Origin: Acidobacteriota bacterium
Lineage (GTDB): Bacteria; Acidobacteriota; Terriglobia; Acidiferrales; UBA7541
Assembly: GCA_003140295.1 (NCBI GenBank)
Contig: PLJR01000171.1
Location: forward strand, 1 to 42,571
DNA: 42,571 nucleotides
Direction of reading: 5' to 3'
Below, in pieces: positions 19,615 to 42,552 of the stretch. The notes under the pieces are model-generated. The model did not search any database. It was given only the letters and a program-made list of their open reading frames with translations, and was not told the DNA's origin. Numbering within the stretch: the stretch's first letter is position 1; every line of letters begins with the position of its first letter. Position numbers and translations under genes: made by a program.

Positions 19615-19691
19615 GGGGCCGTAGTTCAGTTGGTTAGAACGCCTGCCTGTCACGCAGGAGGTCGCGGGTTCGAGCCCCGTCGGCCCCGCCA
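19615..19691 (+). tRNA. tRNA-Asp (anticodon GTC), CCA encoded; integration target of the island
   Basis: Manual fold: acceptor GGGGCCG/CGGCCCC; anticodon loop CTGTCAC; T-loop TTCGAGC; discriminator G. Length 77 nt. Confidence 0.9.
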
Positions 19692-19697
19692 GATTTT
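19643..19697 (+). repeat. attL-type direct repeat (3' 49 nt of tRNA-Asp plus 6 nt)
   Basis: 55 bp identical to 42466..42520. Similarity continues to 19709 / 42531 with one T indel and one A/G mismatch. Confidence 0.9.
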
Positions 19698-19730
19698 TCA
19701 ATGAGTTAGAAGTGCCGTCACGCATCGGCA

Positions 19731-20834
19731 TCAGTTCACTGTAGCGGAAATTGTAGCTACCCGCTGACCGATTTCCAGTGCTTTCAAAATCCCTTCCAGG
19801 CGGAACGTCTCCAGTTTTGCCGTGACCATCCGCTTCTGTTCTTCGGCGGGATGGACGTATCGCATCGTCATTTGGATCTTTGTGTGCCCCAGTATCGAAG
19901 CTAAAGTGGGAAGATCAGCGCCAGCGGCGACCGCTCGGGTTGCGAAGGTGTGGCGCAAATCATAGAGATGGAAATGCTCGACGATACCCGCCCGCTTCAC
20001 TGCGGCATCATGGGCCTTGCGTACACTCGCTATTGGCTTATCTCGGTCTGACGAAGGAAAAACATATGAGCCTTCGGCTTCGGCCGCTCGCTTCTTTAGT
20101 AGGGCATGAACCTCAGCCGTCATAGCCACTTTGCGTCGGGCGGCTTTCGTCTTTCCGAACGGGTTGAAAATTGTACCCCCCGCAAAATCGATATTTTCTA
20201 CCTGAATGCGGAATGCCTCTTCGGGCCGCAGGCCGGTATCCAGAATGATCTGAGAAATATCCTTGAGAGGCTGGCTCGCCTTGGCCAGGTATTTAATCTC
20301 TTCATCAAAACTCAGAACCCTCATTCGTCCGCTCGATTCAGGGAGAAACGCTATGCCCTTTGTAGGGTTTGACACGGCGAAGCCGCAGCGCTCGGCATAA
20401 TGGTAGAAGAGCTTCAGTGTGGTGAGTGCACGATTTACGGTTGCTCCCGAAATTACCCTTCCGTCCTTTGCATTTCGGCGCGGTTCGCCGATCCGCACCG
20501 CCTTGAAATCCTCCACCATTGCCGGCGTGATATCGTCAAGCCACTGCCCGCGGAAGAAGCGCAACAGGGTGTCGCAGTTCCCCGAATGGAGCTCCCACGT
20601 TTTCGGGCGGTGTTGCTGCTTCGACCACTCGAGGAATTTCTTTGCATGCTCTTCGAACTTCGGAGCGAGCTTGGCGCGCTTGAATCCCGCCCGCCGGTCA
20701 ATGAGGTCTGCCCTGCGCTTCGCTTCAACTCTCAGGGCCGCTGTCTTATTGGTGCAGCCCGACGAGCACTGAACGTGCCGTGCTTGGAATTCGAAGTGAT
20801 ACCACCAAACCTTGCCGCGTCGATAGACCGCCAT
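19731..20834 (-). CDS. tyrosine recombinase / integrase (Int1)
   Basis: N-terminal arm-type motif VYRRGKVWWYHFEF. Catalytic signature TGLRPEEA, YDLRHTFATRAV, LGHTKIQMTMRYVH. It lies 39 nt from the tRNA-Asp 3' end. Confidence 0.9.
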   Translation of the reverse strand: MAVYRRGKVWWYHFEFQARHVQCSSGCTNKTAALRVEAKRRADLIDRRAGFKRAKLAPKFEEHAKKFLEWSKQQHRPKTWELHSGNCDTLLRFFRGQWLDDITPAMVEDFKAVRIGEPRRNAKDGRVISGATVNRALTTLKLFYHYAERCGFAVSNPTKGIAFLPESSGRMRVLSFDEEIKYLAKASQPLKDISQIILDTGLRPEEAFRIQVENIDFAGGTIFNPFGKTKAARRKVAMTAEVHALLKKRAAEAEGSYVFPSSDRDKPIASVRKAHDAAVKRAGIVEHFHLYDLRHTFATRAVAAGADLPTLASILGHTKIQMTMRYVHPAEEQKRMVTAKLETFRLEGILKALEIGQRVATISATVN

Positions 20835-20836
20835 GG

Positions 20837-21112
20837 CTAGTTGTTCCTCCTAGCGTTGGATGGGTCGTTCTCGACGCGCACTATACGCTCCTGTAGCCAC
20901 GCATCCAAATCAGCCGAACGATAGCGCACGCAGTTCCTGCTGATCTTGATGAATGGAATGCCTCGGCGCTGACTTCGCCATTGCGCCAAAGTCTCGACCG
21001 AGAGACCGGTGATCTTCGCCAGGTCGTCGGCGGTCAAAAGTCGAGAATTGGCTGACGACACCTGGCCGCTCTGCTGTGCCGGAGATTTCACGAGTTTGGG
21101 CGCGGTTGCCAT
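20837..21112 (-). CDS. excisionase-family / MerR-type HTH DNA-binding protein (Xis-like)
   Basis: LTADDLAKITGLSVETLAQWRSQRRGIPFIKISRNCVRYRSADLDAWL. Sits immediately upstream of Int1. Confidence 0.75.
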   Translation of the reverse strand: MATAPKLVKSPAQQSGQVSSANSRLLTADDLAKITGLSVETLAQWRSQRRGIPFIKISRNCVRYRSADLDAWLQERIVRVENDPSNARRNN

Positions 21113-22546
21113 TTATCTCCGGGAGGGATTATTACCTTTGGACTGCGCGTAAGTCCCGGCAGCGATTCGACCGGCGATCTTAGCTACCTCCGCAACGCTC
21201 CCGGACGCCATGGCGTCGGCGAGTTCGTTCTTCATCACCGCAGACGTAGTGCGCCACGCTGGAGACCGGATTACTTCGCTTGTGGCCAGCATGATCGTCG
21301 AAGCCGCCGCTGCGTCGAGTCCGCCCATGGGTGTAAGCCCTCCAAGAGCCAGCCCAGCCGCCGCACCAGCAATGGGAGCGATGACGCGCGTAAGGCCGCC
21401 TTGCTGCCCTACGCGCCGTTGATTGGTAGCGCCGATCACATCTCCCACCTGGCTCCAGAAATGAAACTCGCCGTTAATCTTGGCGATGTCCGGGCTTTGC
21501 CGTGAGAGTTCGCGGCGAATGGCGTTGGCCGCTTCCTTCTGTGCATCGAGCGCAGTGCCTTCCGCGATGGTTTTCCCCGCGTACCCGCCGCTGCGCGCCA
21601 CGCCCTTATCGAGAATGTGACGGACTTTGTTGAGGCTTTGATAGGAGACGTTAGGCCCAAGTTGAGTGATCGTGTCCTGTAGTTTCTCGACGTTTTTTAC
21701 CGCCGCTTCATCCACCGCGACGCCGTTAACGATGAAGCCCTGCTTGTATTTTTCGAGGCTCTTAACTACTGTGGCCGTGTCTGGCTTCACCGTTGTGGGA
21801 ACTTTAGAAACCGCGTCATTGATCTTCCCGCCCAGTGTTTCCGTTTGCTGCGCCGCCTTGTTTTCAAGCCCTTGCCCGGAGAGCGCCAGTTGCCGGCGTT
21901 CCAGAAGTTCCGGCACGATCTTATCCGTCATATTCTTAGTGGTCTGTTTTGTGGGGCTCAAGAATTTCTGATACTGGTTTTCAGCCGCACGCTTCACCAC
22001 GGGGGCCGCCGCCGATACGGCTTCACCCAGCGTCGCGGCACCAGCACCGATGGCCGCTGAGGGGCCGGGTTGCTGTCCATGCAATATTGCATTTCCGCCA
22101 GCGTTCGCACTCTCTGCTGCGATACGCGCCGCTGCTGCGGGGATTTTCGTCGCAGCGGAAAACGCCTCCGCACCCTCGCGCAGCGGGCCACCGGCGAGCG
22201 TCATCTCTGCCGCTTGCTCAAGTCCGCCTCCCACCTTTTGTGCGGTGTTGGTTTCTTCCAATCGCTTCGGTGCAACTGGCGGGGCGGGAATGTATTTATC
22301 TCCGTAAGGCAGCACGGCACGCAGTCCGGTATTCACTGCTCCGGCGAGATTGTAAGGTGTCGAAGCGAGGCTCTTTCCCGCGCCAGTAGCAACGTCGCCC
22401 AGCGTTTCTCCCACCTTGGCAATGTAGGGATGGCGCTGCGAAAAGGTTTGTGGCGCGGTTTTTTCAGGAGGCTCTATTTCGTACTTCGTTTGCGCCTGAT
22501 CTGGCGGCTCTATTTCGTAGACGGTACTGCCGTCGGACTGACCCAT
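21113..22546 (-). CDS. hypothetical 477-aa Ala/Gly-rich protein with a hydrophobic C-terminal region
   Basis: Long ORF abutting the xis start. N-terminal 12-aa tandem duplication (YEIEPPDQAQTK/YEIEPPEKTAPQ). C-terminal IAPIAGAAAGLALGGLTPMGG. No family recognised. Confidence 0.6.
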   Translation of the reverse strand: MGQSDGSTVYEIEPPDQAQTKYEIEPPEKTAPQTFSQRHPYIAKVGETLGDVATGAGKSLASTPYNLAGAVNTGLRAVLPYGDKYIPAPPVAPKRLEETNTAQKVGGGLEQAAEMTLAGGPLREGAEAFSAATKIPAAAARIAAESANAGGNAILHGQQPGPSAAIGAGAATLGEAVSAAAPVVKRAAENQYQKFLSPTKQTTKNMTDKIVPELLERRQLALSGQGLENKAAQQTETLGGKINDAVSKVPTTVKPDTATVVKSLEKYKQGFIVNGVAVDEAAVKNVEKLQDTITQLGPNVSYQSLNKVRHILDKGVARSGGYAGKTIAEGTALDAQKEAANAIRRELSRQSPDIAKINGEFHFWSQVGDVIGATNQRRVGQQGGLTRVIAPIAGAAAGLALGGLTPMGGLDAAAASTIMLATSEVIRSPAWRTTSAVMKNELADAMASGSVAEVAKIAGRIAAGTYAQSKGNNPSRR

Positions 22547-22683: not shown

Positions 22684-25626
22684 TCATTTCCCGACCACCG
22701 TCCAGTTTTGTCCGTCACACAACACGAGCGCGTACGGGAGGGCCGGCGTGCCAGTTCCGGTCATCGTGGCGCCCCAGGTCGTCGTCGCGGGATCGGTCAC
22801 CATAGCCGTCCTACCTGCCATCGGAACTGAGCAGGTCTGCAGCGCCGCGAATAATTGCGGCATGTTGCCATTCACCACGATGGCGTTAGCCACGCCCGTA
22901 GCGGATTCGGTGGAAACGTAAGCCGTATCCCCGGCGTTCTTTTGGAGGGAAGTGAGCCCGGGGACTCCGTTGACCGTGAATGTGTTTGGGGCGGTAGCCG
23001 AAACGGCGCACTTCGCCGTGCCCCAACACATATCCGTCCAGTAAAAGGAACTGTCGTATCCGGGGCCGCCGATTAGCCCCAGCGTATCGGTCCCGGCGGT
23101 GGTGTTCGTCCGCTTGACAACTTCGCTCCGGTCGGTGGGGGCAATAGGATAGGTTGAACTAGCTTGCACGTTTACCACTGTGCCCGGAACCCCCACCACC
23201 ATTGCGGTGCCGTTCCACACCGGGTACACGTTTGCAGGCTGGCCAATGAACATTGCTGGTGTCGTGAAATCAGAAGTGAATGCCAAGGTTCCATTCGCGT
23301 TTTGCAGGGTGTAGGCGCGATTTGCCGTATTGAAGTGGGTGATGATGCCTTGGAATCCACCCACGTTTATGTTGAGCGGCCCGAGAATGTCTGACGGCGT
23401 TAGATGGCCTGCGATCTGCAAATCTCCCGGAGCGCCACCCGCGCAGCCCTGCCGTCCAATAGCGATGCATCCGCCCACACCTAGCCATCCGCCACTTTCA
23501 GTAAGCTGATCGGTCGCGGCGACTGTGGCAGGGTCATACTCCATCTGTATGGGCAGAAAATTTCCCGCACCGGCGCCGCCCGTATCGACAAACGGCGTGC
23601 CGGGAAGCGAGGAAATGAAGGCAACCGTAGTAACCGGGCTGGCAAGGTCATCTTCAATCGGGCCGCCGATGTGCCGATAAATCAAGTAAGAAGCTGCGCC
23701 CGTAACCGTGTAGGACAGCGTCATGCTCACCGAAGAAGTTGAGCCAGTAAGCGTGGTGCAGATGTCGCCGCTGGGAAAACCGTCTTTGCCTAAACTGTCC
23801 CGAACAACCACCATGTAGCAAACCAAGCCGGCCGGGAGCGTTCCTCCCGATGACGAAGGCGTGAGAAATAGAGACGGAGGGCCGATGGGAATCTTCATGC
23901 CGCCAGCAAAGGCTGCGCTTGGAGTGTTGGCGAACGTGGTCAAACCGCCGTGCTTGTTGATGTTGAAAAAGCTGTTGCTGTATCCGTAAATTCCGAGCGG
24001 GCAGTAGGACGCGATGCAGCCGATTTCGATTGCGCCATCAAAAAGATGTGGACCTTCTTGATTCGTGCCGGGTGGCTGGCGATAGATGGGCCCGACCGGG
24101 CCTGGATTTACGATCAAGCTCGAATAGAAGGTGTGCACGCCGGGGGTGCCGGTGAGTTGCACGATGGGCGTGGGCAGGCCGCCCGCATTGTCAGCGGTAA
24201 TCGGCTCGTACAAATCCCATGCGCCGTAGCCGCCGCCGGTGATGTCCAAGCAAAACATGCAATCCGATCCACCTTCATAGAGTTGCAGTTGCGAGTGAAT
24301 AAAGGTCGAATCTCCTCCGTGAGCGCAAAGATGGCTATCGAAGTTGACGCCCTTTTGGTCGAGGAACGTGCGGTCCCACAAAATGATGCGCGGCGGGTCG
24401 CAGCCCGGGCTGATATCGGTGGTGATGAAATTCATACTGGGTGCGCCGGTGGGCCATGGAGAATTAGCCAAAAAGCCGCCGCGCTCGAAGTAGTAGCCGA
24501 AGCCGTTCACGCCCTTGAACGGAATCCCAGCGTCGTTATTCACCTGCGACCAGATGTCCCTAAAGATCGTGTTGCCGCTCTTGTTCACGGCAAGCTGGGT
24601 GCCAGGGCCGTAGAAGGAAAGGCCAGAGACTAAACCGTCGAAACCCGAAGCATTTTCGAGGCTCAACACCGTACTGAGAGAAGTGTTAATTGGGCAGTTC
24701 GTGGTGTTCAGGAACGGAATGAAGCCGTTAGAATGCTGAAAGGGTTCGTGGCATTGTAGGGCGTACCCGCCGGGCACGTGCATGGTAGACGTGGGGTTGA
24801 ATCTGCCGCCAAACGACAGGGCAATGCCTTCGGTGGGTGAAGTGAACGTAATCGCGCCCGTGCAATTATCGGGGATGAATGGCGTGCCGCCCGTGATAAG
24901 TAGGCCATTTATCGCGTTGTTCATCTGCACAGTGTTGATGGTCACGCCATCACACGGCTGGCTTCCGTATGCCGCATTCGTAATGGCTGTGATCGGGTTG
25001 GGTCCGAGATTTGGGTAGCCGGTTCCACTCCCCCCGCCTCCTGATCCGCACCCGCCCGTGGTCACGCAGGGGTAAGTCACCTGCCGGAATGTCGTGGCGA
25101 CGTTCGGGCCGTAGATTTGCAGCCAGTACGGTCCCGGGGCGATACCGAAGGCGTAATTACCCAAGCCATCGGTCAGCGTGGGATTGGAAATTGGCGTTCC
25201 CAGCGTGGTGTCGGAGTAAAGCGCAGCGAGCGATGCGCACGGGCCGCTCGTGCCGCGCTGCACCGCAGTTCCGACCGACGCGCCCGCAGCATTCGCATGA
25301 GTCAGCGGGTAGGTGATCGTGCTGGTGGAAACCGCCAGGATGGTGAAGTTGCCGTTGAAATAAGTGTCGGCGCCAGTAAAACCCGCAACCGTCAGCGTGC
25401 CGCCCACGATGAAGCCCGCCGTCACGGGATTGGACGACATGACGAGTGTGGCAAGATTGTTTGTCACCGCAGCACTGGCAATGGTAGCCGGCGAGCATAC
25501 GGCCACGCTCGCGCCAGCCAGCGGCAGGCCCGCACCACTCTGCGCGGTGTTGTTTTCCTGATAGCCCTGGGCACGCGCGACGGTCGCGCATAGCAGGATG
25601 CCGAGGATGAGCAGAAAGCGTTTCAT
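22684..25626 (-). CDS. 980-aa secreted protein; N-terminal Ig/CarboxypepD_reg-like region, Gly/Ser linker, beta-helix (pectate-lyase-3/tailspike-like) candidate
   Basis: Signal peptide MKRFLLILGILLCATVARAQG. GLGNYAFGIAPGPYWLQIYGP, linker GGCGSGGGGSGTG, and AYGSQPCDGVTINTVQMNNAINGL resemble the start of tailspike or glycosidase beta-helices. The C-terminus LVLCDGQNWTVVGK is tail-fibre-like. Confidence 0.65.
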   Translation of the reverse strand: MKRFLLILGILLCATVARAQGYQENNTAQSGAGLPLAGASVAVCSPATIASAAVTNNLATLVMSSNPVTAGFIVGGTLTVAGFTGADTYFNGNFTILAVSTSTITYPLTHANAAGASVGTAVQRGTSGPCASLAALYSDTTLGTPISNPTLTDGLGNYAFGIAPGPYWLQIYGPNVATTFRQVTYPCVTTGGCGSGGGGSGTGYPNLGPNPITAITNAAYGSQPCDGVTINTVQMNNAINGLLITGGTPFIPDNCTGAITFTSPTEGIALSFGGRFNPTSTMHVPGGYALQCHEPFQHSNGFIPFLNTTNCPINTSLSTVLSLENASGFDGLVSGLSFYGPGTQLAVNKSGNTIFRDIWSQVNNDAGIPFKGVNGFGYYFERGGFLANSPWPTGAPSMNFITTDISPGCDPPRIILWDRTFLDQKGVNFDSHLCAHGGDSTFIHSQLQLYEGGSDCMFCLDITGGGYGAWDLYEPITADNAGGLPTPIVQLTGTPGVHTFYSSLIVNPGPVGPIYRQPPGTNQEGPHLFDGAIEIGCIASYCPLGIYGYSNSFFNINKHGGLTTFANTPSAAFAGGMKIPIGPPSLFLTPSSSGGTLPAGLVCYMVVVRDSLGKDGFPSGDICTTLTGSTSSVSMTLSYTVTGAASYLIYRHIGGPIEDDLASPVTTVAFISSLPGTPFVDTGGAGAGNFLPIQMEYDPATVAATDQLTESGGWLGVGGCIAIGRQGCAGGAPGDLQIAGHLTPSDILGPLNINVGGFQGIITHFNTANRAYTLQNANGTLAFTSDFTTPAMFIGQPANVYPVWNGTAMVVGVPGTVVNVQASSTYPIAPTDRSEVVKRTNTTAGTDTLGLIGGPGYDSSFYWTDMCWGTAKCAVSATAPNTFTVNGVPGLTSLQKNAGDTAYVSTESATGVANAIVVNGNMPQLFAALQTCSVPMAGRTAMVTDPATTTWGATMTGTGTPALPYALVLCDGQNWTVVGK

Positions 25627-25642
25627 CGTTAGAAGGCTGAGT

Positions 25643-25775: not shown

Positions 25776-26324
25776 TTAGCTTCTTAGAACCAGCATGTTT
25801 ACAGGACCGTACGAGTTCCCCCCGGCACTATTGCCGGCCGTGGTGGGCGGCACGGCTCCGAGGTAGTACACGGCGAAGATGGGCGTGCCAATCGTGGCAT
25901 CTCCGGTGATTGCGGCCTGATCGGCCCACTGGTCGCCGCCCGTCACAACTTCCCGCATGATCGCGTATTGCAGGTTGGCGGGGAGGGTTACCGGGCTGAT
26001 CGCGGCCCACCGATAAGCGTTTATCGGCCCTTTCGACATGTCGATTACTGCCGTCGCCAGAATGGTGAGCGCTCCGGCGTTGTCTGCTGCGAGGTAAATA
26101 TGCGTTGCCGGATTCGCGTTCCCGGCCACGCGCCACATGCCTAGTGCCGTGACCGTGTAATTCACTGATGCCGGCGTCCCAAAACTGAATCCCACGGCGC
26201 CGCTCGCGTCGCTTCTCAGCGAGCCAATGGATTGCGCGGTCACCAGCAGCGAGCCTGGGGGCGTAGGGAAGGCGTTCACCGGTATCGATGTTCTCGACCG
26301 CTCGCGTGTTCGTAAGAGTCCCAT
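25776..26324 (-). CDS. hypothetical 182-aa protein, possibly DUF4082-like beta-sandwich
   Basis: Strong SD (GGAGGAG, 7 nt before ATG 26324). GFSFGTPASVNYTVTALGMWRVAGNANPATHIYLA...AYRWAAISPVTLPANLQYAI resembles the DUF4082 pattern as I remember it; this was not tested. Confidence 0.55.
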   Translation of the reverse strand: MGLLRTRERSRTSIPVNAFPTPPGSLLVTAQSIGSLRSDASGAVGFSFGTPASVNYTVTALGMWRVAGNANPATHIYLAADNAGALTILATAVIDMSKGPINAYRWAAISPVTLPANLQYAIMREVVTGGDQWADQAAITGDATIGTPIFAVYYLGAVPPTTAGNSAGGNSYGPVNMLVLRS

Positions 26325-28484: not shown

Positions 28485-28735
28485 GGCACGCTCTCAATCG
28501 AGTTTGCGAGCTTGACGGCTATACGCGAAAGATTGCGCAAATTCGCCGGGCTGGATGGAAGGTCACGTTCAGCACGAAGCAACAAAAGACGGCATTGTCC
28601 GAGGAAAATCTCGACGTCAATAATCTCGTCGCCCGTGGCAAAATCCCTGTCGCGCCTTGTCCCGGGACATAAGGAATTGGTTGTTGAGCACGTCTCGGCG
28701 CCTTCGAGTGACCCGGCCTGGGCGCGTTTGGGCAT
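28481..28735 (-). CDS. hypothetical 84-aa protein
   Basis: Fits the overlapping-gene chain between the wHTH gene and the initiator-like gene. No motif recognised. Confidence 0.4.
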   Translation of the reverse strand: MPKRAQAGSLEGAETCSTTNSLCPGTRRDRDFATGDEIIDVEIFLGQCRLLLLRAERDLPSSPANLRNLSRIAVKLANSIESVP

Positions 28736-29049
28736 CAGCGCACCCCCGCAAAGAGCGGCATCGCTTCCGCATGAAGTTCGCGCGTGCGCTGTTCGTAAGT
28801 TGGGATTTCACGGGGGGCTTGCGGTTCCGTGTGAAGCACGAAGCGAAAGACACTGTCGCCCTCCCGCCGCGTCTCGACTGCAAAACCCTGCTTGCGTAGC
28901 TCCCAGATGCGGGCGCCGTAGCGAAAGCAGACCGTATTCAGTTCGAGATTTGTGACGCCGGCGCGGCCGCGCTCTCGGAGCAATGCTAGGATGCGGTCTC
29001 GCTGAGCGGGCGATTTGTCGGTGGGTCCACGTGACGTTTCGGATTTCAC
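28735..29049 (-). CDS. winged helix-turn-helix protein (HTH_39-like)
   Basis: QRDRILALLRERGRAGVTNLELNTVCFRYGARIWELRKQGFAVETRREGDSVFRFVL. This is the pattern of small phage/plasmid wHTH proteins. Confidence 0.7.
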   Translation of the reverse strand: MKSETSRGPTDKSPAQRDRILALLRERGRAGVTNLELNTVCFRYGARIWELRKQGFAVETRREGDSVFRFVLHTEPQAPREIPTYEQRTRELHAEAMPLFAGVR

Positions 29050-32272: not shown

Positions 32273-32379
32273 CTCCGAAACGCGCGGGTGGGCCGATCAG
32301 GTTTGCCCGCGCGTCCGCCCGTCATTTACGCCCAGGCCTGCGGGTGCCGATGAGGCTGGCCGGGCTTTGAGGTGTCGCC

Positions 32380-33462: not shown

Positions 33463-33463
33463 A

Positions 33464-34483: not shown

Positions 34484-34563
34484 TTCGCACTGCGCCGGCG
34501 TCTGCCGCATTTCGCGCCTCGCCGCGGCACCGATGAGGAACGCGAGCGCTTGGGGAGGATTAG

Positions 34564-34887
34564 ATGGCTAAACTGCATGTCGCAAGCGATCAAGAGAAGT
34601 GCCACGAAACCGATTTGCTGGAGATCGCCATTAGTGGAGCGGGTTTGCACGCTGCTCCCGGCTTGTCATTCGTCGCAGGCGCCCGCGTGGTCATCCGCGG
34701 CATTGCTGATCAAATTCAGGTCTTAACCAGCATCGGAAGTGACAACTTGGATGGAAATATCGCCAATGGATTCGCTCACGCGCTCCTCCAAGTGGATCGG
34801 GAACTTGAGAGGGCGATGGAATGGCCAAAGCGTGCGGGGGTTAACCCATCGACCCCAGCGACCCCAAGGAGAGCAGGCGCGCATTGA
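34564..34887 (+). CDS. hypothetical 107-aa protein coupled to Int3
   Basis: GGAGGA 5 nt upstream of the ATG. Its stop TGA (34885-34887) overlaps the Int3 ATG (34887). Confidence 0.5.
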   Translation: MAKLHVASDQEKCHETDLLEIAISGAGLHAAPGLSFVAGARVVIRGIADQIQVLTSIGSDNLDGNIANGFAHALLQVDRELERAMEWPKRAGVNPSTPATPRRAGAH

Positions 34888-36026
34888 TGGTGGAACCCAT
34901 GGACAACAGCACCCGCCCCGGGCCCGCGAAGGTTCGGGGCGTCTACGAGCACCCGAAGGGCTCGGGCGTTTGGTGGATATGCTACTTCGAAAATGGGCGC
35001 CGGCATCGCGAGAAAGTCGGCGCCCGCCAACTCGCGATCAGTGCCTACGCCAAGAGAAAGATCGACATCCGCGAACACAAGTTCTTTCCTGAGCAGATTC
35101 GGCCGGTATATCTTCGGTTCGAAGAGCTTGCCGCCGACGCGCTCGAATACTGTCGCCAGTATCACGTGACCGCTGGGCACGGGCGTGACTTGCGGCAGAT
35201 GAATACCCTACTCCGATGGTTCAAGGGGCACGTAGCAACCACGATCACTCCGCAGGATATTGAGCGCAAACTCGCTGCACTGTCTGACGCGGGCCGCAAA
35301 CCTGCAACGCTAAACCGCTATCGCTCAATGCTCAGCTTGATTTTTTCTCTGGGCATGCGCAATGGCAAAGTGAAAGCCAATCCCGCACGCGAGGTGCGGC
35401 GGCGAACTGAAAACAACGAGCGGGTGCGGCACCTCGACGAAGAGGAGGAGCAAGCGCTGCGTGCAGTCATTCAGGCGCGGTTTCCCGACCGTGAAGCGGA
35501 ACTCGATTTAGCGCTCCAAACCGGGATGCGCCGCGGCGAGCAGTATCAGTTGCGCTGGCAGGACGCGAACCTGGCAAGTGGAATTATCACCATTCCCCGA
35601 AGCAAGCACGGCGGAGTGCGGCACATCCCCATCAACTCGACCGCCCGCGCTGTGCTCGAAGGCCTACGGTCGCGCACCGGTAGCCAGCTCTACGTCTGCC
35701 CAGGTCCGCAGCAGAACCGCGAGAGCACGAACAGCCGTTGGTTTGAAAAGGCTGTACGCACTGCAGGCGTCGAAGATTTCCGCTGGCACGATCTGCGGCA
35801 TACGTTTGCGAGCCGCCTCGCTATGGCAGGAGTGAATCTCCGGGCGATTCAGGAGTTGCTAGGGCACAAGTCCGTTGCGATGACGCAGCGCTACACTCAC
35901 CTCTCCGATTCGCACCTTCGTCAAGCTATCGAGCAAATCACGACTCCGCCGATGCCGGCCAGTGAGCAACCGAAGATCGCTGCGAACGTGCTCCAGTTCC
36001 GCGCCTCCGGAACCAGGACCAAGTGA
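34887..36026 (+). CDS. tyrosine recombinase / integrase (Int3), paralog of Int2
   Basis: Arm-type N-terminus VRGVYEHPKGSGVWWICYFENGRRHREKVG. Catalytic TGMRRGEQ, WHDLRHTFASRLAMAG, LLGHKSVAMTQRYTH. Confidence 0.9.
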   Translation: MVEPMDNSTRPGPAKVRGVYEHPKGSGVWWICYFENGRRHREKVGARQLAISAYAKRKIDIREHKFFPEQIRPVYLRFEELAADALEYCRQYHVTAGHGRDLRQMNTLLRWFKGHVATTITPQDIERKLAALSDAGRKPATLNRYRSMLSLIFSLGMRNGKVKANPAREVRRRTENNERVRHLDEEEEQALRAVIQARFPDREAELDLALQTGMRRGEQYQLRWQDANLASGIITIPRSKHGGVRHIPINSTARAVLEGLRSRTGSQLYVCPGPQQNRESTNSRWFEKAVRTAGVEDFRWHDLRHTFASRLAMAGVNLRAIQELLGHKSVAMTQRYTHLSDSHLRQAIEQITTPPMPASEQPKIAANVLQFRASGTRTK

Positions 36027-36673
36027 GGGCGGCGATCTACGCGCGGGTCAGCACCGCCAACAACGGCCAGGACCCGCGCGTTCAGACCCGCGAACTGCAG
36101 GAGTATTGCCAGCGCCGCGGCTGGGCGGTAGCTGGCGAGTACGTGGACATCGGGATATCGGGCACCAAGGAAAAGCGACCGGAGCTCGACCGGCTGATGA
36201 AAGAGGCGCACGGCCGCCGCTTTGACGCCGTGGTGGTGTGGCGCTTCGACCGGTTCGCGCGGTCTGTGTCGCATCTACTGCGCGCGCTGGAGACCTTCCA
36301 GGCGCTCGGCATCCAGTTCGTGAGCCTATCCGAGCAGCTCGACACGTCGACACCGACGGGCAAGATGGTCTTCACGGTCCTAGGCGCCGTGGCCGAGTTG
36401 GAGCGTAGCCTGGTCGCCGAGCGGGTGAAGGCTGGCCTGCGAAACGCCCGGGCGAAGGGACAACGACTTGGCCGGCCCCCGCGGGACCTGGACGCTGCGA
36501 AGATTGCCAAGCTGCGCGCACAGGGGCTCGCCTGGCGCGCCATCGCCGCTCAGCTAGGGGTTGGGCTTGCCACGCTGCATCGTGCGGCTGGAGGGCGTTC
36601 CAAAACTCAGGAAAGGGATTTTGGAACGCTAGGCCGTGGGGTTGCGCGTCAGTCGGGTCACGGTCCGAAGTAG
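36023..36673 (+). CDS. serine recombinase (resolvase/invertase family) with C-terminal HTH
   Basis: AAIYARVSTANNGQD (catalytic Ser), VVVWRFDRFARS, GAVAELERSLVAERVKAGL, HTH GLAWRAIAAQLGVGLATLHR. Its GTG overlaps the Int3 stop (GTGA). Confidence 0.9.
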   Translation: MRAAIYARVSTANNGQDPRVQTRELQEYCQRRGWAVAGEYVDIGISGTKEKRPELDRLMKEAHGRRFDAVVVWRFDRFARSVSHLLRALETFQALGIQFVSLSEQLDTSTPTGKMVFTVLGAVAELERSLVAERVKAGLRNARAKGQRLGRPPRDLDAAKIAKLRAQGLAWRAIAAQLGVGLATLHRAAGGRSKTQERDFGTLGRGVARQSGHGPK

Positions 36674-36770: not shown

Positions 36771-37253
36771 GTGAAGCCACTTATCGCAATGCTCTCAATT
36801 CTGTTCACGGTCAGCGTTGCCGCGCAATCACCTCCGCCGGGACCACTCTCAGTGGAAATACTGTCTGCCGAAATGACGAACTGGACGACGTACTGGAATG
36901 ACTCGGGTTCGGCCGGAACGACTTCCACCAACTGCTCCGAAAGCGAGAGCGAAGTCAACTGCACGAGCAGCACCACTGGGCGAAGGTCCGCATCCAGCAC
37001 GCCGATAAAACACACCCGGGTGGACATCGTTGTAAGAATGCCCGATGGGAACGAAGTAACGATGCAGTGTCACTTTCCTCCTATTTGGGCTGACTGTTTC
37101 AAGCCGGCACTCGGCATGTACCAGGCCGAAATCAACAAACACGATGTCCGACTACTTTTTGCGACTCAAGGGCGGCCCGACTACAACAAGAACGGCACGA
37201 TTAAGAAGCCGGGGAAGGTGCACGAGGTCTGGGTGAAATTCAGCTTCGTATAA
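36771..37253 (+). CDS. hypothetical secreted 160-aa protein
   Basis: Signal peptide MKPLIAMLSILFTVSVAAQ, a Ser/Thr-rich linker and four Cys. No family recognised. Confidence 0.5.
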   Translation: MKPLIAMLSILFTVSVAAQSPPPGPLSVEILSAEMTNWTTYWNDSGSAGTTSTNCSESESEVNCTSSTTGRRSASSTPIKHTRVDIVVRMPDGNEVTMQCHFPPIWADCFKPALGMYQAEINKHDVRLLFATQGRPDYNKNGTIKKPGKVHEVWVKFSFV

Positions 37254-37260
37254 GGATCTC

Positions 37261-37395
37261 GTGGAGTTGGGCTCGAAAGACAAGTTTGCCGAGGCCAAGC
37301 GTCAGACCGCGCAAACATCTGAGAAATGTCGAGCAGCTCACGTAGCGCTAGAGATGCACCACGCAGAACACAAGTGCTGTTCAGACGAAAAATAA
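37261..37395 (+). CDS. 44-aa ORF, short member of the H-x-C small-protein family (below the ORF-track cutoff)
   Basis: Own translation: VELGSKDKFAEAKRQTAQTSEKCRAAHVALEMHHAEHKCCSDEK. It aligns with SKFKVAQQHAQQLHAKCREALSALEEHRLQHGC of ORF 40202..40417. Confidence 0.4.
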   Translation: MELGSKDKFAEAKRQTAQTSEKCRAAHVALEMHHAEHKCCSDEK

Positions 37396-37752
37396 ATTAG
37401 CCAGGCTAGGCTTAACGTTCGGTGTAACTTCAAGCCCGAGTCGCAAGCCAGTGTGAATTGGGAATCATTTCCAACCGTAAAATATTGTGTAACACTCAGT
37501 GCACCGATAAAGCCGCAGCCGGAGAAAAGCGACAAAATGCCGGCCCAAGAATCCACCACTACGTTGTGCACCAATAACATGAACGCCGGCACACTTATAT
37601 TTGTGGACCATAGCAAGTGTCTCTTTTTTCAATTTCAACCCTGATCTGGGCACGGTGGGTACCTCCGTTAATCACATTCAGTGGATCAATCGTGAAGCTA
37701 TGTTTTCAGACGAAAAACATCCAAATCGAACGTCGCAGTGCAGAGGTTCAGT

Positions 37753-38190
37753 TTACAAAGTGAGGCCGAAGTGTGGGGGCAGGTGGTTTAGCGATGAGGT
37801 TGGTTCCTCCAAGTATTCCCAGCTCGGAGCATGAATCAAGAGTTCCAAGGCGAAGTGAACTTGTGAAATAAAATACTTCCGCGACAGAGACGAACATCCT
37901 TCGGGAATCATTTCGTAATACGGCTTAGTCTCTAGCCATAGAATTGCAGCCCGGCGTTCCGCTTCACTGATGGATTTAAAGTGCCTCCTCAATTCCCGAG
38001 AAACGTCGACCAGCGATAAACCGACCACACTTGCAAAAATACTCTGGTGGGCATCTCGCAATGTCACGTTTAGCTCGGCGGGCGAGCACACCGTCGCCCA
38101 TCCCTCGTGAACATAGCACCCCGTATAAGGGTCCCGAAGCGAGGCTAAAAACGCCAGTTGAGCGAAGGGGCTCGGCAGCGAGTCGAACAC
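37753..38190 (-). CDS. hypothetical protein, possibly 5'-truncated
   Basis: GTG start at 38190. The frame stays open and protein-like upstream to 38271 (REETRIIHFGTGNRTLQEHAISRYLSR) with no ATG, GTG or TTG. Confidence 0.4.
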   Translation of the reverse strand: MFDSLPSPFAQLAFLASLRDPYTGCYVHEGWATVCSPAELNVTLRDAHQSIFASVVGLSLVDVSRELRRHFKSISEAERRAAILWLETKPYYEMIPEGCSSLSRKYFISQVHFALELLIHAPSWEYLEEPTSSLNHLPPHFGLTL

Positions 38191-38391
38191 TCGGCTCAGG
38201 TACCGCGAAATGGCGTGTTCTTGAAGCGTACGGTTCCCCGTGCCAAAGTGAATAATTCTAGTTTCTTCGCGCTATAGTCTATCGCCTGCGTCGCCGTTCT
38301 TAAATCTAAGCCGAGGTACACAACATGACCCCTTCCCTCATTCCGACCCGTGGTGTGTACTCGTAGATTAAGCGATTTTGTGAGGAGAGTG

Positions 38392-38446
38392 TCACTAGTA
38401 CATTAGGAAAGTATCACTAGTACACCAGTACGGTACGGCCGTACCG
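38392..38446. promoter_or_regulatory. direct repeats TCACTAGTACA x2 (22-bp period) followed by the 16-bp perfect palindrome CGGTACGGCCGTACCG
   Basis: 38392-38402 and 38414-38424; palindrome at 38431-38446. They lie in the divergent gap between 37753..38190(-) and 38588..39160(+). Confidence 0.45.
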
Positions 38447-38587
38447 CATCGCTGAAAGTAATTTGGCAACTACAATGGCTGCCGTAATGGTAGCTATATA
38501 TCGCACTCTCGAATTCACCGGAGTTGTGCTCTACAGGTGAAGGAGAATTGGAATCAGGCTAATCCGGCGGTCCGGGAATTTTGAACC

Positions 38588-39160
38588 ATGATTGAACTCA
38601 TACTATTTACGACCATCGGTGTAGGCCTACTCACCGGTTTTTTGGCGCTCAGTTTTCAGGGTTCTCCGCGTAAGGTGGCTAGGTCTTCCGTGATGACGGC
38701 GGTTGGCGAGATGGTCCGGCTGGAAGGACTGGCCTTTACAAACGCGGCCGGGTTGCTGGATGACGCTGAGTACCGGCTGCTTTGTTCCAATATATATCTA
38801 CAGGAAGTGGCCAAGCGTTATCGTAAAGAGCGTCAGGAACTGGCCATCACGTGGATTTCGATGTTGCAAACGGATTTGCGAACACTGCTGAGGTTCCATC
38901 GCTTTCTGATCAGCCGTGGGGCTTCGTCGAAATTTCAAGAGGAGTTGGAGATCCTGGGAACTTACGTTGCGTCCGTTGTTCTGTTGAGCTTGCTGAAGAC
39001 CTCGATTTACGCGGTAGGTCCTTTCGCACTGTGCCGAACTAGCCGGTGCGCCAGAGGACTGGTTGCCAGAATGTCTCACACCACTGCGCAGACGCTCGGC
39101 CGGATACCAACAGTAGGATGGCCCGAACTCGAGCGCAGTTGGGGGAGTGGTCTGGCTTAG
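38588..39160 (+). CDS. hypothetical 190-aa membrane-anchored protein
   Basis: N-terminal TM MIELILFTTIGVGLLTGFLALSF and a second hydrophobic stretch, YVASVVLLSLL. No SD and no family recognised. Confidence 0.45.
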   Translation: MIELILFTTIGVGLLTGFLALSFQGSPRKVARSSVMTAVGEMVRLEGLAFTNAAGLLDDAEYRLLCSNIYLQEVAKRYRKERQELAITWISMLQTDLRTLLRFHRFLISRGASSKFQEELEILGTYVASVVLLSLLKTSIYAVGPFALCRTSRCARGLVARMSHTTAQTLGRIPTVGWPELERSWGSGLA

Positions 39161-39242
39161 GCGTTAAAAGCGAGAAGGTCGACTGATTGCATCACTTTCA
39201 GTCGCTGCACTCGCCGCGTTCCATGATCGTATCGAAGCCTGA

Positions 39243-39566
39243 ATTCCAGTCGGCGGCACGTGGGCACTACGAACCAATGCACGAAGCCCGCTCATTTCGC
39301 TGTATATTCGCTATGCCGCACATCTGTACCTTACCCACGCGAAGGGAAATCCGGAGAGTAGGCTCCCCATCCCAACGAGGACGACAATATTCGAGGTGGT
39401 GACTGGCGGCCGGCTTTACAGGGTCACAGGCGGGGCCTTCCAAAAGTGGATCGAGCAGCGTCGCGAGGCCCTGGAAAGGACCGCGGGGGGCTTTTGTTCA
39501 GAAAGCGGCCGAAGCTGGAGTAAACGGCTGTTCCTAAATCCCCAAGTTTTAGCCGTCCGTAACTGA
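39243..39566 (+). pseudogene. possible remnant of an excisionase/AlpA-type HTH gene
   Basis: Own translation of the open frame: ...PIPTRTTIFEVVTGGRLYRVTGGAFQKWIEQRREALER... There is no canonical start before the GTG at 39396. Confidence 0.3.
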
Positions 39567-40201
39567 TTGAATCGTGAACAATGCCCAGACGTCAATTCCC
39601 TGTTCCGAAATCAGATGATTTTGTTGCCGCCCTGCCGCCCTTGCGTGGGAGGGTTGGGTGCTCACCACGAACGACTCAGATGAAAATCGGAGCCGCGGTC
39701 CCCGCAGTGGATGCTTCCCAACCCGTCGAGCAGTCTCACAGGACGCTACGGGCGACTCAATGGCTCGACTGCTCTATTTTTGCCGGTACCCGCTTCACAG
39801 TACCCGCCTCAGTGCCGCTTACGGCCGCCTGGAGCACGGCTGCAATATCACGATGTGAAAAACGCCGGCGACCATTTGAATGCCGCGCGTCTGCGCGGGG
39901 AGCTTCAGTAAGGTAACGTGATCGCCTTGATAGCGACAACAATGAGGGTGCCGAGACTTACTGCCAAGCAAACAGCGTCGAAGATTTTGGATTTCATGGG
40001 AGCGATTCTGGCTCTTAGGAGAGAGCGGGACCATAGCCCAAAGGATGGATTTTGGCGGTACCGAACGTACCAGGACTTTCGCTCCTGTTTTGGCAGAATC
40101 GGGTGATTGTTTAGGTAGACGTACGATGGTCCAGGGTGTACGGTGCAACCCCGTTCCTGCCTGAATAAAGAGAGTTTTGACCGACTCAGAGTGGGGTCCC
40201 C

Positions 40202-40417
40202 ATGGAATGTGCGACCGCCCAGTTGCTTCTTGTAAATTACTCCGTAGTCGCGATGGAGTACTTTGGTGCTGCCGACGATCTAGCCAATCTTGTGGGCTCG
40301 CATAGCAAATTTAAAGTCGCGCAGCAGCATGCCCAGCAACTACACGCGAAATGCCGCGAGGCGCTGTCGGCCCTGGAAGAACACCGCCTACAACACGGCT
40401 GCAATATGGCGATTTGA
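40202..40417 (+). CDS. 71-aa small protein, full-length member of the H-x-C family
   Basis: MECATAQLLLVNYSVVAMEYFGAADDLANLVGSHSKFKVAQQHAQQLHAKCREALSALEEHRLQHGCNMAI. Paralogous to 37261..37395 and to the 3' end of 39658..39858. Confidence 0.5.
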   Translation: MECATAQLLLVNYSVVAMEYFGAADDLANLVGSHSKFKVAQQHAQQLHAKCREALSALEEHRLQHGCNMAI

Positions 40418-40423
40418 ACCGTA

Positions 40424-40675
40424 TCACCGCCTGGGTTCGCGCCGCCTGCGATACTGGCGGAGTATTTGAGCTTCCTTCTGCACCACGCGGGGAATCCCGC
40501 ATGTCAACAGTGACAAGCTGATGTCCTGCAGCGTCAATCCCTTTTCGGCCTTGAGCTTGGCAAGAACACTGAGGACATGCTTGCGGCCTTCAGTCGCCCT
40601 GTTGAGTGAGTCGGGCTTGCGCCCGCCCGCCTTGGAATTTCGCCCGGTTCCGGCCATTCTAGAGTTTCTCCCCAT
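40424..40675 (-). CDS. hypothetical basic 83-aa protein
   Basis: Last gene of the leftward run that starts near attR. Arg/Lys-rich ends. No family recognised. Confidence 0.4.
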   Translation of the reverse strand: MGRNSRMAGTGRNSKAGGRKPDSLNRATEGRKHVLSVLAKLKAEKGLTLQDISLSLLTCGIPRVVQKEAQILRQYRRRREPRR

Positions 40676-40705
40676 TGCCGCGACGTGTCTTTGCGCTCAG
40701 CGCCC

Positions 40706-41215
40706 TTACCTCCATCGCCGTGGCGCGATGAACCGCACATTAACCCTCTGCTGTTCAGCCTGCATTCTGAGATGCGCGATATGAATGGCGGTGTAATCTG
40801 GAGGAGCAACGTTTGCGTTTGCCGCTCGTGTGGCTGGGGGCCTGGTAACACCCGCTACCAGACACGCCATTTGCGTAGCTGTGGGACGGCGCAGCGATCC
40901 GCGTTCCCTCTGCTTGCCGGTTTCCTCCCTGGCGCGTCTCAGATCCTCGATTGTGGCTGATCCCATTCGAGCACCATCATTTGGGTTTACCGAAAATATC
41001 CGACCGAGCTTCTGAATGTACGTGTGACTGACGCCGAGCCATCGGGCCAGCGCGCGGCCGGCGCATCTCGACTGTCCGCTCACTCCGCTTACGTACCACT
41101 GCCAGACGAGACACCGAATCAGACGGGTTTCCTGATAACTTCGCCAGGGTCGCGGCGCCCGCCAACAGGCCTTCGCTTTTGCGAGGTTTTGCATTGAAGA
41201 ATATGTAGAGGGCAT
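40706..41215 (-). CDS. HTH-containing hypothetical protein (169 aa)
   Basis: SGRALARWLGVSHTYIQKLGRIF is an HTH-like segment. Confidence 0.5.
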   Translation of the reverse strand: MPSTYSSMQNLAKAKACWRAPRPWRSYQETRLIRCLVWQWYVSGVSGQSRCAGRALARWLGVSHTYIQKLGRIFSVNPNDGARMGSATIEDLRRAREETGKQRERGSLRRPTATQMACLVAGVTRPPATRAANANVAPPDYTAIHIAHLRMQAEQQRVNVRFIAPRRWR

Positions 41216-41286
41216 GCGGCGCTATTTTAGCAGAGTTGCCAACTTTCCATGATCTGATCTAAAGCACTTAGCGGCGCGCGCGGGAG

Positions 41287-41769
41287 TTAGTGGCAAATTA
41301 ATCCCACAATCTTTTGCGCCTGCGGAAATCCATTGCGAGCAAGCGCCATTACAGTCCTCTGCTGCTGCTTCGAAAGGTTCCCAGCCTTCGCAGCCGCCTC
41401 AAGCCCCTTAAGAATCTTGGGAACCGACTCATTGAGCACGGAATCGATCATGGAGTGTAACGCAGCTCGATCATAAGCGACGGCTCGGGCCTCTTCCCAA
41501 GGGGTCAAGCAGCGATTCTCGGCCTCAGCACGGTTGCGAATGTCTTCCGCCTGTTGTTCGTATTCCTCCTTCTGCCACCTGTGTAGGCTTCGAAGGTAGA
41601 AGCTTAGGACTTGGTGCGAGGTACCCAACTCGACGGCCAGTGCGCGGAGCGAGATTCTCTGCGGCTCTGGCGTCTGCTTCCACGACACCAGCCTCGCACG
41701 GATGGCCGCGGCGCGGGATTCATCAGCAGGTCTGCCCCGTTTCACCGACCCTGGCGTTTTATTCGTCAC
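41287..41769 (-). CDS. HTH-containing hypothetical protein (160 aa)
   Basis: ISLRALAVELGTSHQVLSFYLRSL is an HTH-like segment. GTG start. Confidence 0.55.
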   Translation of the reverse strand: MTNKTPGSVKRGRPADESRAAAIRARLVSWKQTPEPQRISLRALAVELGTSHQVLSFYLRSLHRWQKEEYEQQAEDIRNRAEAENRCLTPWEEARAVAYDRAALHSMIDSVLNESVPKILKGLEAAAKAGNLSKQQQRTVMALARNGFPQAQKIVGLICH

Positions 41770-41920
41770 CGCAGACTACCCTCCAATTTTGCATTGAGTT
41801 CGCCTCTTCGGCATCAAGCAACAGTTTTAGGTAATTTTCGATATGCGCTTCCCCGTGATCGTTTGATTCTTTGATTTATTTCAAACGTACTGCTCCATAA
41901 AGATTCGCGCTAGCATCCTG

Positions 41921-42241
41921 CTAGGGCGATTTTCTTGCTCCCAAGCTACCCCCATAGCCAACCGCCAAAATTGCGTCTGTAAGTCCTTTGTTCAGTATGG
42001 GTGTTTTCGGGTTATTTGATCGGTCTGGGACACCGGGCCGCATGCGGCAGACTTCAGAGCAAAAACGCGCACGTTTTCGCTTCGCGTTGAGGGTTGTGCC
42101 GCAGGATTCGCACGCGCCCAGTTTCCGTTCCACGCCGTCTCGACAAAACCGGGAGCACCATTCGCCCGGCTCATCTCGCCTGGTGTAGCGAACCGGCCCA
42201 AGAACTTTTCCGCACCGGTCACACGCCTCTCTCGCGAACAC
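41921..42241 (-). CDS. double zinc-ribbon protein (106 aa)
   Basis: Two CxxCG...(W/F)CSxxCR units: CDRCGKVLGPVRYTRRDEPGEWCSRFCR and CESCGTTLNAKRKRARFCSEVCR. Confidence 0.55.
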   Translation of the reverse strand: MFAREACDRCGKVLGPVRYTRRDEPGEWCSRFCRDGVERKLGACESCGTTLNAKRKRARFCSEVCRMRPGVPDRSNNPKTPILNKGLTDAILAVGYGGSLGARKSP

Positions 42242-42465
42242 ACTATGCCGGCACAGGAGTTGGCGGCTTTGCGCTTCACCGAGCCGCAGGGATGGCCTCG
42301 ATTCGCGTGGCGGCGGATGCCCGTGATCGGTGTAGCGGCTTTTGTAGCGACCCTACGATCAGTCGCTTACATGCGGCTACATCCGCACACATGCTCAATG
42401 CCAGCCTAAGTCTTTGCGTTTGTGGGCAGTGGTTGAAAATGGAGAGGTTACTAACTCCGTTACTG

Positions 42466-42520
42466 CTGCCTGTCACGCAGGAGGTCGCGGGTTCGAGCCC
42501 CGTCGGCCCCGCCAGATTTT
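42466..42520 (+). repeat. attR-type direct repeat (copy of the tRNA-Asp 3' part; not a complete tRNA)
   Basis: Identical to 19643..19697. The sequence 5' of 42466 does not match the tRNA 5' half. Confidence 0.9.
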
Positions 42521-42552
42521 CAGTGAGTTAGCTGAGCGAGTATTCATCGCGT

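Follow-up and report, generated by a model that had tools for sequence, protein, structure and literature searches.

What occupies the tRNA-Asp gene of a bacterium from peat, and is it still a mobile element or the remains of one? The question is raised by contig PLJR01000171.1 of an Acidobacteriota bacterium (GenBank assembly GCA_003140295.1), which was analysed over its whole length of 42,571 nucleotides and is referred to below as the window. Acidobacteriota are abundant in soil and peat, but hardly any have been cultured, and little has been described of their mobile elements. An earlier interpretation made from the letters of the window (the sequence-only reading) had proposed a mosaic integrative element of about 22.8 kb in the tRNA-Asp gene. 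On balance, we regard this element, here called the island, as a single tRNA-Asp-integrated element of phage ancestry, namely a defective prophage whose late region was deleted and which is now passively carried at one copy per chromosome.

The island is bounded by a repeat of the tRNA-Asp 3' end

A repeat search found one long repeat in the window, a perfect direct repeat of 55 nt. Beginning with the second anticodon-stem base of tRNA-Asp(GTC), it comprises the last 49 nt of the tRNA plus 6 nt (Table 1). By our own arithmetic, the chance expectation for an exact pair of 55-mers in 42.6 kb is about 7e-25. The intact tRNA-Asp gene was called by ARAGORN and Rfam, which also detected tRNA-Ala (18123-18198) and tRNA-Val (19523-19598), three tRNAs in total. 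At the right-end repeat neither of them called a tRNA, and no third copy of the att core was found inside the element. The 55-bp repeat, the end of the intact tRNA at 19691 and the view that the second copy is no functional duplicated tRNA, its 5' half being absent, had all been put forward by the sequence-only reading and were borne out by these searches. It had also suggested comparing the composition inside and outside the island, and the two differ slightly. The GC content is 0.55-0.60 in the island and 0.59-0.60 in the flank, and the tetranucleotide correlation is 0.81-0.93 between island and flank as compared to 0.96 between the two halves of the flank.

The minus-strand genes follow one another from about 31.5 kb down to the tRNA in the order 136-aa, 535-aa, 54-aa, winged helix-turn-helix (HTH), 84-aa, 249-aa, DnaB, 182-aa, a doubtful 47-aa open reading frame (ORF), 980-aa, 477-aa, xis and int. 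On the plus strand the order rightwards is MerR/HTH_17, 121-aa, 360-aa, a second tyrosine recombinase (YR1), a 107-aa ORF, a third tyrosine recombinase (YR2), a serine recombinase and about nine small ORFs. This agrees with the earlier description of the content as mostly replication, HTH or recombinase genes or genes of unknown function; the gene scans left the remaining genes without a Pfam match.

Table 1. Features of the island and of its two ends (positions in the window)
Feature	Position	Strand	Basis
Intact tRNA-Asp(GTC), proposed integration target, restored at attL	19615..19691	+	ARAGORN; Rfam tRNA 72.7 bits
attL identity block, 55 nt	19643..19697	+	perfect direct repeat; anticodon stem through CCA end plus 6 nt
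Tyrosine integrase (int), 367 aa	19731..20834	-	PF00589 1.2e-27
Candidate arm-type integrase site, P' arm, TGTAGCGGAAATTGTAGC	19740..19757	+	overlaps last int codons; one of two window matches
Excisionase/AlpA-like HTH_17 protein (xis), 91 aa	20837..21112	-	PF12728 1.8e-10; TIGR01764 excise domain 6e-4, under its cut-off
477-aa all-helical protein, likely phage injection or internal-virion protein	21113..22546	-	operon context, weak fold match
980-aa spike- or fibre-like protein, signal-peptide-like N-terminus, Gly linker	22684..25626	-	homologues in prophage structural modules
182-aa single-domain DUF4082-like protein	25776..26324	-	HMMER search; PF13313 in three of five relatives scanned
DnaB-family replicative helicase	26380..27738	-	PF03796 7.6e-44, PF00772; TIGR03600 phage_DnaB 215 bits, below cut-off
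249-aa putative replication initiator or helicase loader	27735..28484	-	faint PHROG matches to DnaD-like loader and initiator, E 4e-3 to 6e-3
Three small genes: 84-aa ORF, 104-aa winged-HTH protein (28735-29049), 54-aa ORF	28481..29210	-	PF14090 HTH_39 1.5e-7; gene calls
Swappable regulatory segment	29203..31842		three genes, divergent promoters about 31512-31570; Pfam matches
535-aa Ros/MucR-like and HTH_17 protein	29344-30951	-	Pfam
136-aa protein, hydrophobic N-terminus	31102-31512	-	
MerR/HTH_17 protein, 89 aa	31570-31839	+	Pfam
121-aa and 360-aa proteins	31907..33462	+	without family match
Second tyrosine recombinase YR1, without arm-binding-type N-terminus	33440..34483	+	PF00589 1.2e-28; catalytic motifs present
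Hammerhead type II-like RNA motif, core variant CCGAUGA	34465..34546	+	RF02276, 30.6 bits, E 0.007, gathering score 37
107-aa ORF and third tyrosine recombinase YR2 (380 aa, integrase-type N-terminus)	34564..36026	+	PF00589 3.4e-34
Small serine recombinase, resolvase/invertase type	36023..36673	+	PF00239 3.5e-48; 56% identical sister copy
About nine small ORFs without family assignment, several HTH-like	36771..42241		no Pfam/PADLOC match, only faint PHROG matches
Zn-ribbon protein	41921-42241		70% identical gene at sister right end
Candidate arm-type integrase site, P arm, TGTAGCGGCTTTTGTAGC	42331..42348	+	other of two window matches
attR identity block, partial tRNA-Asp without 5' half	42466..42520	+	repeat search; no tRNA called there
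Start of a relic of about 150 nt, 3' end of an older related integrase gene, continuing past the window end	42521..42571	-	arm alignment to L190, L192

Integrase, Xis-like gene and candidate arm sites

The integrase gene, whose stop codon is 40 nt from the tRNA end, and the Xis-like gene adjoin the intact tRNA as previously described, and the PF00589 and PF12728 matches support both assignments. All catalytic motifs of the integrase are found in the translation: R (TGLRPEE), HxxR (HLYDLRHT) and Y (MRYVH). The HTH_17 protein resembles a recombination directionality factor (excisionase).

The motif TGTAGCGGnnnnTGTAGC occurs exactly twice in the 42.6-kb window, once inside each end of the element. 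Both copies of the TGTAGCGG-n4-TGTAGC repeat have the same orientation and are located 43 nt inside attL and 118 nt inside attR. A sister island, described below, has its own version, TGTAGTGGnnnnTGTAGT, at both ends, and reads TGTAGTGG-n4-TGTAGT in each arm. The arms of one element therefore co-vary, as expected for sites that are read by the element's own integrase. We infer that these repeats are putative arm-type integrase sites of the reconstituted attP.

In the mechanism that we propose, an attP carrying the tRNA segment that extends from the anticodon stem to the 3' end would recombine with the chromosomal tRNA-Asp(GTC) gene through the tyrosine integrase. The recombination would restore the tRNA at attL and leave the partial copy at attR. 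The crossover would take place in the anticodon loop, the integrase would bind to the repeats on both arms and the HTH_17 protein would direct excision. The recombination machinery is probably still usable.

A sister island is found in a second species

The left 18 kb of the window consist of ordinary chromosomal genes, including a two-component system, TatC and an S41 protease. Their best relatives are in metagenome-assembled genomes of Acidobacteriota, in the Terriglobia / 'Ca. Acidoferrales' group, and the nearest species representative, MFD03346.bin.1.82 (CAVRDM01), is 88.6% identical over 12.3 kb. In CAVRDM01 the 49-nt tRNA end occurs twice on one contig (CAVRDM010000014.1), at a distance of 27,593 bp, and the two copies delimit a sister island of 27.6 kb at tRNA-Asp. 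The same arrangement is thus present with different flanks in another species.

The comparison of the two islands covered the left and right ends of the sister island, all but 12.4 kb of its interior (312001-324381 of the contig). At the left end the sister island encodes the integrase (60% identical), xis, DnaB (95% at the amino acid level), the 249-aa initiator-like protein (68%), a MerR-like protein, the 121-aa gene (62%) and the resolvase (56%). At its right end it has the Zn-ribbon gene, 70% identical, and the arm region, and a recombinase is found, like the resolvase, between its ends. It has neither the 360-aa gene nor YR1. In the sister island xis is directly followed by dnaB and the 5.2-kb late-gene stub that separates them in the window is absent. 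This adjacency indicates that the backbone can do without 21113-26324.

The island has a total of four recombinase genes, and the architecture of YR2 is that of a complete integrase, including an N-terminus of the arm-binding type. The island could therefore be thought of as two elements of independent origin, arranged in tandem or nested: one on the left from 19.7 to 31.8 kb with int and replication genes, and one on the right from 31.8 to 42.5 kb with YR1, YR2 and the resolvase, which would join at the swappable segment. In that case the outer repeats would not be the boundaries of one unit. No copy of the att core is found internally, however, and the arm motif of the integrase is at the far right end and not near 31.8 kb. 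The sister island has the same ends, with a resolvase and a recombinase between them. We consider two elements very unlikely: the shared ends and the co-varying arms of the sister island argue that the 22.8 kb are a single unit.

A second possibility is that there is no mobile element and that the second repeat was left over from a tRNA gene duplication or rearrangement. An empty site, which would speak against this, was not found (see below). The second copy lacks the tRNA 5' half, though, and the integrase abuts the intact copy, matching arm motifs are present at both ends and the arrangement recurs with different flanks in another species. This explanation has next to no chance of being correct. 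The original proposal of an integrative element of about 22.8 kb in tRNA-Asp is upheld by the repeat, the adjoining integrase and Xis-like genes, the arm motifs, relatives at the same site and the sister island.

One further region of the island is conserved in the sister. The stretch 39671-40060 is seemingly non-coding and 70-80% conserved with the sister, where parts of it flank the resolvase gene in another order. The region also has a 35-nt direct repeat (39825-39859 and 40384-40418, 559 bp apart). It could be recombinase sites or an origin.

The late-gene stub points to a phage ancestry

The stub at 21113-26324 contains the genes of the 182-, 980- and 477-aa proteins, which are of the podovirus late-operon type. 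The 477-aa protein has 21 homologues among 5.8 billion clustered proteins. In three of the contigs (L181, L182 and L185) the homologue is the last gene of a podophage structural operon, following an SU10_adaptor gene and the gene of an 850-1013-aa protein that is taken to be the nozzle by its position and size. Two viral contigs of IMG/VR also encode relatives. The AlphaFold model of the 477-aa protein is all-helical, with a predicted local distance difference test score (pLDDT) of 65 overall and 80-94 over the residues 175-375. In the BFVD its best matches were proteins that bear the name injection protein or have LT_GEWL domains (E 1e-5 to 1e-3), with low TM-scores, and a fold search of the PDB with the same model gave noise only. 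From the context and the weak fold match, the 477-aa protein is likely an injection or internal-virion protein.

A further homologue occurs in L183 (GCA_016853205.1, contig JACXTT010004578.1), where an integrase and an HTH_17 gene lie beside tRNA-Val together with the 477-aa homologue and a DUF3987 protein. L183 was considered as a second small element without a capsid, for which there was no support, no terminal repeat being found within 20 kb.

For the 980-aa protein 10 homologues were found in the collection of 5.8 billion proteins. Its residues 225-746 are 52-57% identical to the products of genes just upstream of the SU10_adaptor gene in the two prophages L187 and L188. The proteins of this family, including the homologues P0024, P0027 and P0028 in prophage structural modules, have signal-peptide-like N-termini and a CarboxypepD_reg-type domain. 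Such N-termini are unexpected for a virion or tail protein that is assembled in the cytoplasm. The AlphaFold model of the 980-aa protein was unusable (pLDDT 36). The 182-aa protein is a single copy of a DUF4082-related domain of about 155 residues that is usually repeated in giant proteins; a HMMER search gave 864 matches, mostly such repeats, and a word-index search found no homologue outside its own cluster.

Closer viral relatives were sought in two ways. A tblastn search of 50,697 phage records with the 477-, 980- and 360-aa proteins matched nothing, and single-query scans of IMG/VR with the 477-aa, the 182-aa, the initiator-like and the DnaB proteins did not find close relatives. An inovirus-like reading, with the Gly linker and a small ORF as coat protein, was rejected since the 47-aa ORF is not hydrophobic and no Zot-like gene is present.

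We take the element to be phage-derived, since homologues of the 477- and 980-aa proteins are encoded in SU10_adaptor operons, the 477-aa protein has the fold matches described above and relatives occur in IMG/VR. It is also conceivable that a non-phage island of an integrative plasmid-like type captured the 5.2 kb as a phage tail cassette, carried as cargo between xis and dnaB. The sister island is then the same backbone without the cassette, the homologues of the 477- and 980-aa proteins come from different phage lineages and were never found together, and the domain family of the 182-aa protein is one typically seen in giant proteins of the cell surface. Against a capture stands the order of initiator and DnaB, then late genes, then xis-int, which is that of a phage. 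In addition, no plasmid partition, relaxase or transfer gene was found, and neither insertion scars nor repeats flank 21113-26324. A captured cassette is decidedly unlikely in our view.

A defective prophage or a phage satellite

In no ORF of the island did Pfam, PHROGs or NCBIfam detect a capsid, portal, terminase, lysis, structural or packaging family. The Pfam scans of the ORFs also gave no family of a relaxase, coupling protein, type IV secretion, conjugation or plasmid partition. As far as the scans tell, the island forms no particles of its own and does not conjugate, and it is predicted to be non-autonomous.

We prefer the defective prophage because of the order of the genes: initiator and helicase come first, then the end of the late operon, then xis-int. 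A temperate podophage that lost the region from packaging to tail would be left with this order, and in the sister island a similar deletion would have gone further. Signs of decay are that the stub is absent in the sister island and that the 980-aa gene is broken in three independent assemblies.

A non-autonomous element of this layout might also be a functional phage satellite. A helper podophage would induce it, its own initiator and DnaB would replicate it, helper capsids would package it and its own spike-like and injection proteins would set the host range. The layout of int, an AlpA-like gene and an own replication module (initiator-like and DnaB, not a primase-helicase) resembles that of a satellite, the ORFs are intact, the att repeat is perfect and the same backbone persists in a second species. 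Behind dnaB, two genes of virion type have stayed in the order of the operon, and the ORF at 40706-41215 has a faint small-terminase PHROG match (E 0.03). No gene for packaging redirection or capsid remodelling (terS, ppi/cpm, sid/psu/delta) was recognisable with Pfam and PHROGs, however, and 22.8 kb exceeds the usual size of satellites. The sister island lacks the virion genes, and the 980-aa gene is broken in a part of the population. The sequencing depth of the island is 1:1 with the flank, with no amplification, and the IMG/VR scans with the helicase and the initiator-like protein gave no close relative. The signal-peptide-like N-termini of the 980-aa family are also odd for a tail protein assembled in the cytoplasm. 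We regard a functional satellite as unlikely. A more far-reaching version is that the island and its CAVRDM01 sister are satellites of acidobacterial podophages that depend on a helper and form a family not yet described. Its members would possess their own replication module, a host-range cassette of spike-like and injection protein that can be exchanged, and a module of three recombinases whose transcript is processed by a variant hammerhead RNA. We mention this as a speculation with a small chance of being right.

Several points weigh against the defective prophage integrated at tRNA-Asp. The sequence-only reading had called for an empty tRNA-Asp site and for the attP and attB junctions, and neither was found among relatives, genome contigs and JGI contigs. 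An unoccupied site with the same flanks was not detected, and the synteny of the flanks is not conserved among the relatives. It breaks after tRNA-Ala in the relatives of the left-flank protease, and no relative has a tRNA-Asp near the Zn-peptidase of the right flank, so the flanks of the relatives are uninformative on the empty site. The attB 27-mer had 0 matches in genome contigs, and the 81- and 82-mers of the attB/attP junctions had 0 matches in JGI metagenome contigs. The read data were Logan contigs built from 31-mers, which cannot span the 55-nt core. Since these contigs break inside the core, the loose ends at 19643 and 19697 are explained by the other att copy. With a perfect att repeat and almost every ORF intact, the island could be functional just as well as decaying. 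The late-gene stub may have been acquired instead of being left over. No function could be assigned to about half of the genes, and genes for hijacking or related to capsids may be hidden among them. Finally, the P' arm motif is within coding sequence, where it encodes the A-T...A-T residues of the integrase C-terminus, and coding constraint may account for a part of its conservation.

The tRNA-Asp site was used more than once

The sequence-only reading had noticed that the similarity of the two ends continues past the repeat for 11-12 nt. The extra similarity exists and is longer than that: 92 of 110 nt (84%) agree within the window, and the similarity extends over about 150 nt in total into the flank. 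The flank beyond the window end was taken from the two sister contigs L082 and L091. When the stretch following attR was aligned with the integrase-proximal arms and last integrase codons of related elements, it was 81% identical over 197 nt to L190 and 80% over 187 nt to L192, the core included. The reading frame is broken, and the stretch runs about 100 nt beyond the window in L082 and L091, where chromosomal genes follow, among them that of the Zn-peptidase. What lies to the right of attR is thus the relic of an earlier related occupant of the tRNA-Asp site, and the similarity past the repeat exists because this relic of an older integrase lies there. The relic outside attR means that the site was used more than once.

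Related integrases lie beside tRNA-Val/tRNA-Asp, at the same tRNA-Asp 3' end, in three other species (L189, L190 and L192, with 69%, 60% and 71% identity, respectively). Ten species have an identical tRNA end; a recombinase is adjacent in 3, clearly none in 4, and 3 have too little flank. These results suggest that tRNA-Asp is a hotspot that is repeatedly used by one integrase lineage.

Outside the island, the region from tRNA-Ala to tRNA-Val (18199-19522) has a lower GC content of 0.50-0.55 and contains a 136-aa ORF and a truncated EamA-like ORF. It may be the remains of another insertion, the synteny with all relatives ending right after tRNA-Ala. No support was found for a larger insertion at tRNA-Ala that covers the whole region.

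The island varies between peat metagenomes

The window corresponds, in reverse complement, to positions 1475-44045 of the ENA contig ERZ27254089:k141_675085 (44,955 bp), and its sequence was met again in several metagenomes of peat. A frameshifting deletion of 37 bp (25094-25130) splits the 980-aa gene in three independent assemblies (L174, L175 and L176) of other peat samples, where the 360-aa gene is split as well. Cassette swapping of the 980-aa gene was rejected, since the variant is colinear and differs by the 37-bp deletion. In the same assemblies the 2.6-kb segment 29203-31842 is replaced by 1.6 kb with other genes (262, 79 and 74 aa). Otherwise, the two versions of the island differ by about 20 substitutions over 11.7 kb. 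The segment is also replaced in run X4, which showed zero depth over 29203-31842 and a loose end at 29202. The earlier description of the element as a mosaic is supported by the swap of the regulatory segment between samples and by the uneven identity of the modules to the sister island (DnaB 95%, initiator-like protein 68%, integrase 60%).

On its right side the swapped segment ends exactly at a strong 14-bp GC-rich hairpin (31844-31878, minus strand). The hairpin gave weak Rfam matches to SymR and the R1162 antisense RNA that are probably due to the hairpin alone.

The depth of the island equalled that of the flank in four peat metagenomes (about 8/8, 7.5/8, 4/3.5 and 9/10, island/flank), which indicates that the element is resident in essentially all cells of this population. 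No sign of amplification was seen in these four data sets, and no sequence words of the island were found in three metatranscriptomes.

Extra recombinases, a hammerhead-like RNA and other genes

YR1 and YR2 are paralogous. The hammerhead-like motif (Table 1) was a full-length match in a relaxed Rfam scan, below the gathering cut-off. The GAAA, the GUC site and the stems I and III are present, and the core reads CCGAUGA where the consensus is CUGAUGA. The block 34466-34553 that contains the motif is the best conserved one between the two islands (95.6%), although YR1 is absent in the sister. The sister copy (L190 4664-4747, minus strand) scored 28.2 bits with RF02276, and the differences between the copies are confined to loops. 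The free energy of the motif is ordinary (z-score 0.15). Bacterial hammerheads are often found near prophage integrase genes, and a short stem II and rare core variants are documented (PMC3088659). Like them, the motif of the island is located between recombinase genes of a phage-derived element, and a short open stem II is common there. It differs from them in its score below the Rfam gathering cut-off and in its core, and is a candidate ribozyme.

The recombinase cluster was also compared with the recombinase-in-trio (RIT) elements, where ritA, ritB and ritC are adjacent, overlap by 4-8 bp, belong to distinct families and form a unit of about 3.5 kb (PMC3414803). Several tyrosine recombinase genes clustered in a genomic island are common to the RIT and BIM elements (PMC3414803) and to our locus. 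A RIT element was rejected, since only two tyrosine recombinases are adjacent here, and these are paralogous, are separated by the 107-aa ORF and are followed by a serine recombinase.

In the replication module the stop codon of the 249-aa gene overlaps the start of dnaB. The region 37000-39000 has a GC dip to 0.49-0.52. A 22-nt tandem repeat (38383-38424) is found there, along with ORFan genes for a 145-aa protein and for a 190-aa protein whose N-terminus is hydrophobic. The region looks like recently acquired cargo without a family match. No defence system was found among 20 proteins scanned with PADLOC.

Comparison with known systems

The island belongs to a very common, ordinary kind of element that carries mostly unknown genes. 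It leaves the ideas of how such elements work unchanged, and its value is one of annotation and not of surprise. What the locus offers is an element with clean boundaries, an integrase and an att pair, and candidate arm sites that change in step from one of two related elements to the other. It also places two rare protein families, for which 21 and 10 homologues were found, in podophage structural operons, and the 477-aa protein becomes an injection-protein candidate.

P22 at a tRNA-Thr gene and P4 at a tRNA-Leu gene are tRNA-integrating elements with tyrosine integrases of the lambda/P4 type. The island resembles them in the integrase beside the tRNA 3' end, the attP tRNA segment that would restore the gene, the excisionase-like HTH gene beside int and the arm motifs on both sides. 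It differs from them in that virion, packaging and lysis genes were not detected, in the three extra recombinases and in that the integration is read from the sequence. From integrative and conjugative elements (ICE) and integrative mobilizable elements (IME) it is distinguished by the lack of a relaxase, coupling protein or type IV secretion family in Pfam.

With satellites such as the phage-inducible chromosomal islands (PICI), the P4-like elements and PLE the island has in common the integrase, the AlpA/Xis-like HTH protein, an own replication module, divergent regulatory genes and the predicted lack of autonomy. Unlike them, it is without a detected terS, ppi/cpm or sid/psu/delta gene, is larger at 22.8 kb, carries spike- and injection-type genes and has no known helper.

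The cryptic prophages e14, Rac and CP4-57 of E. coli have no sequence relationship to the island, as the tblastn search of the phage records with three island proteins showed; the host of the island belongs to the phylum Acidobacteriota and its stub comes from podophages with an SU10-type adaptor. Their composition is nevertheless like that of the island, with int and xis, partial replication and regulation genes, a tail-fibre-type stub, a serine recombinase and no capsid/terminase region, and the likeness extends to the polymorphic gene decay seen within the population of the island.

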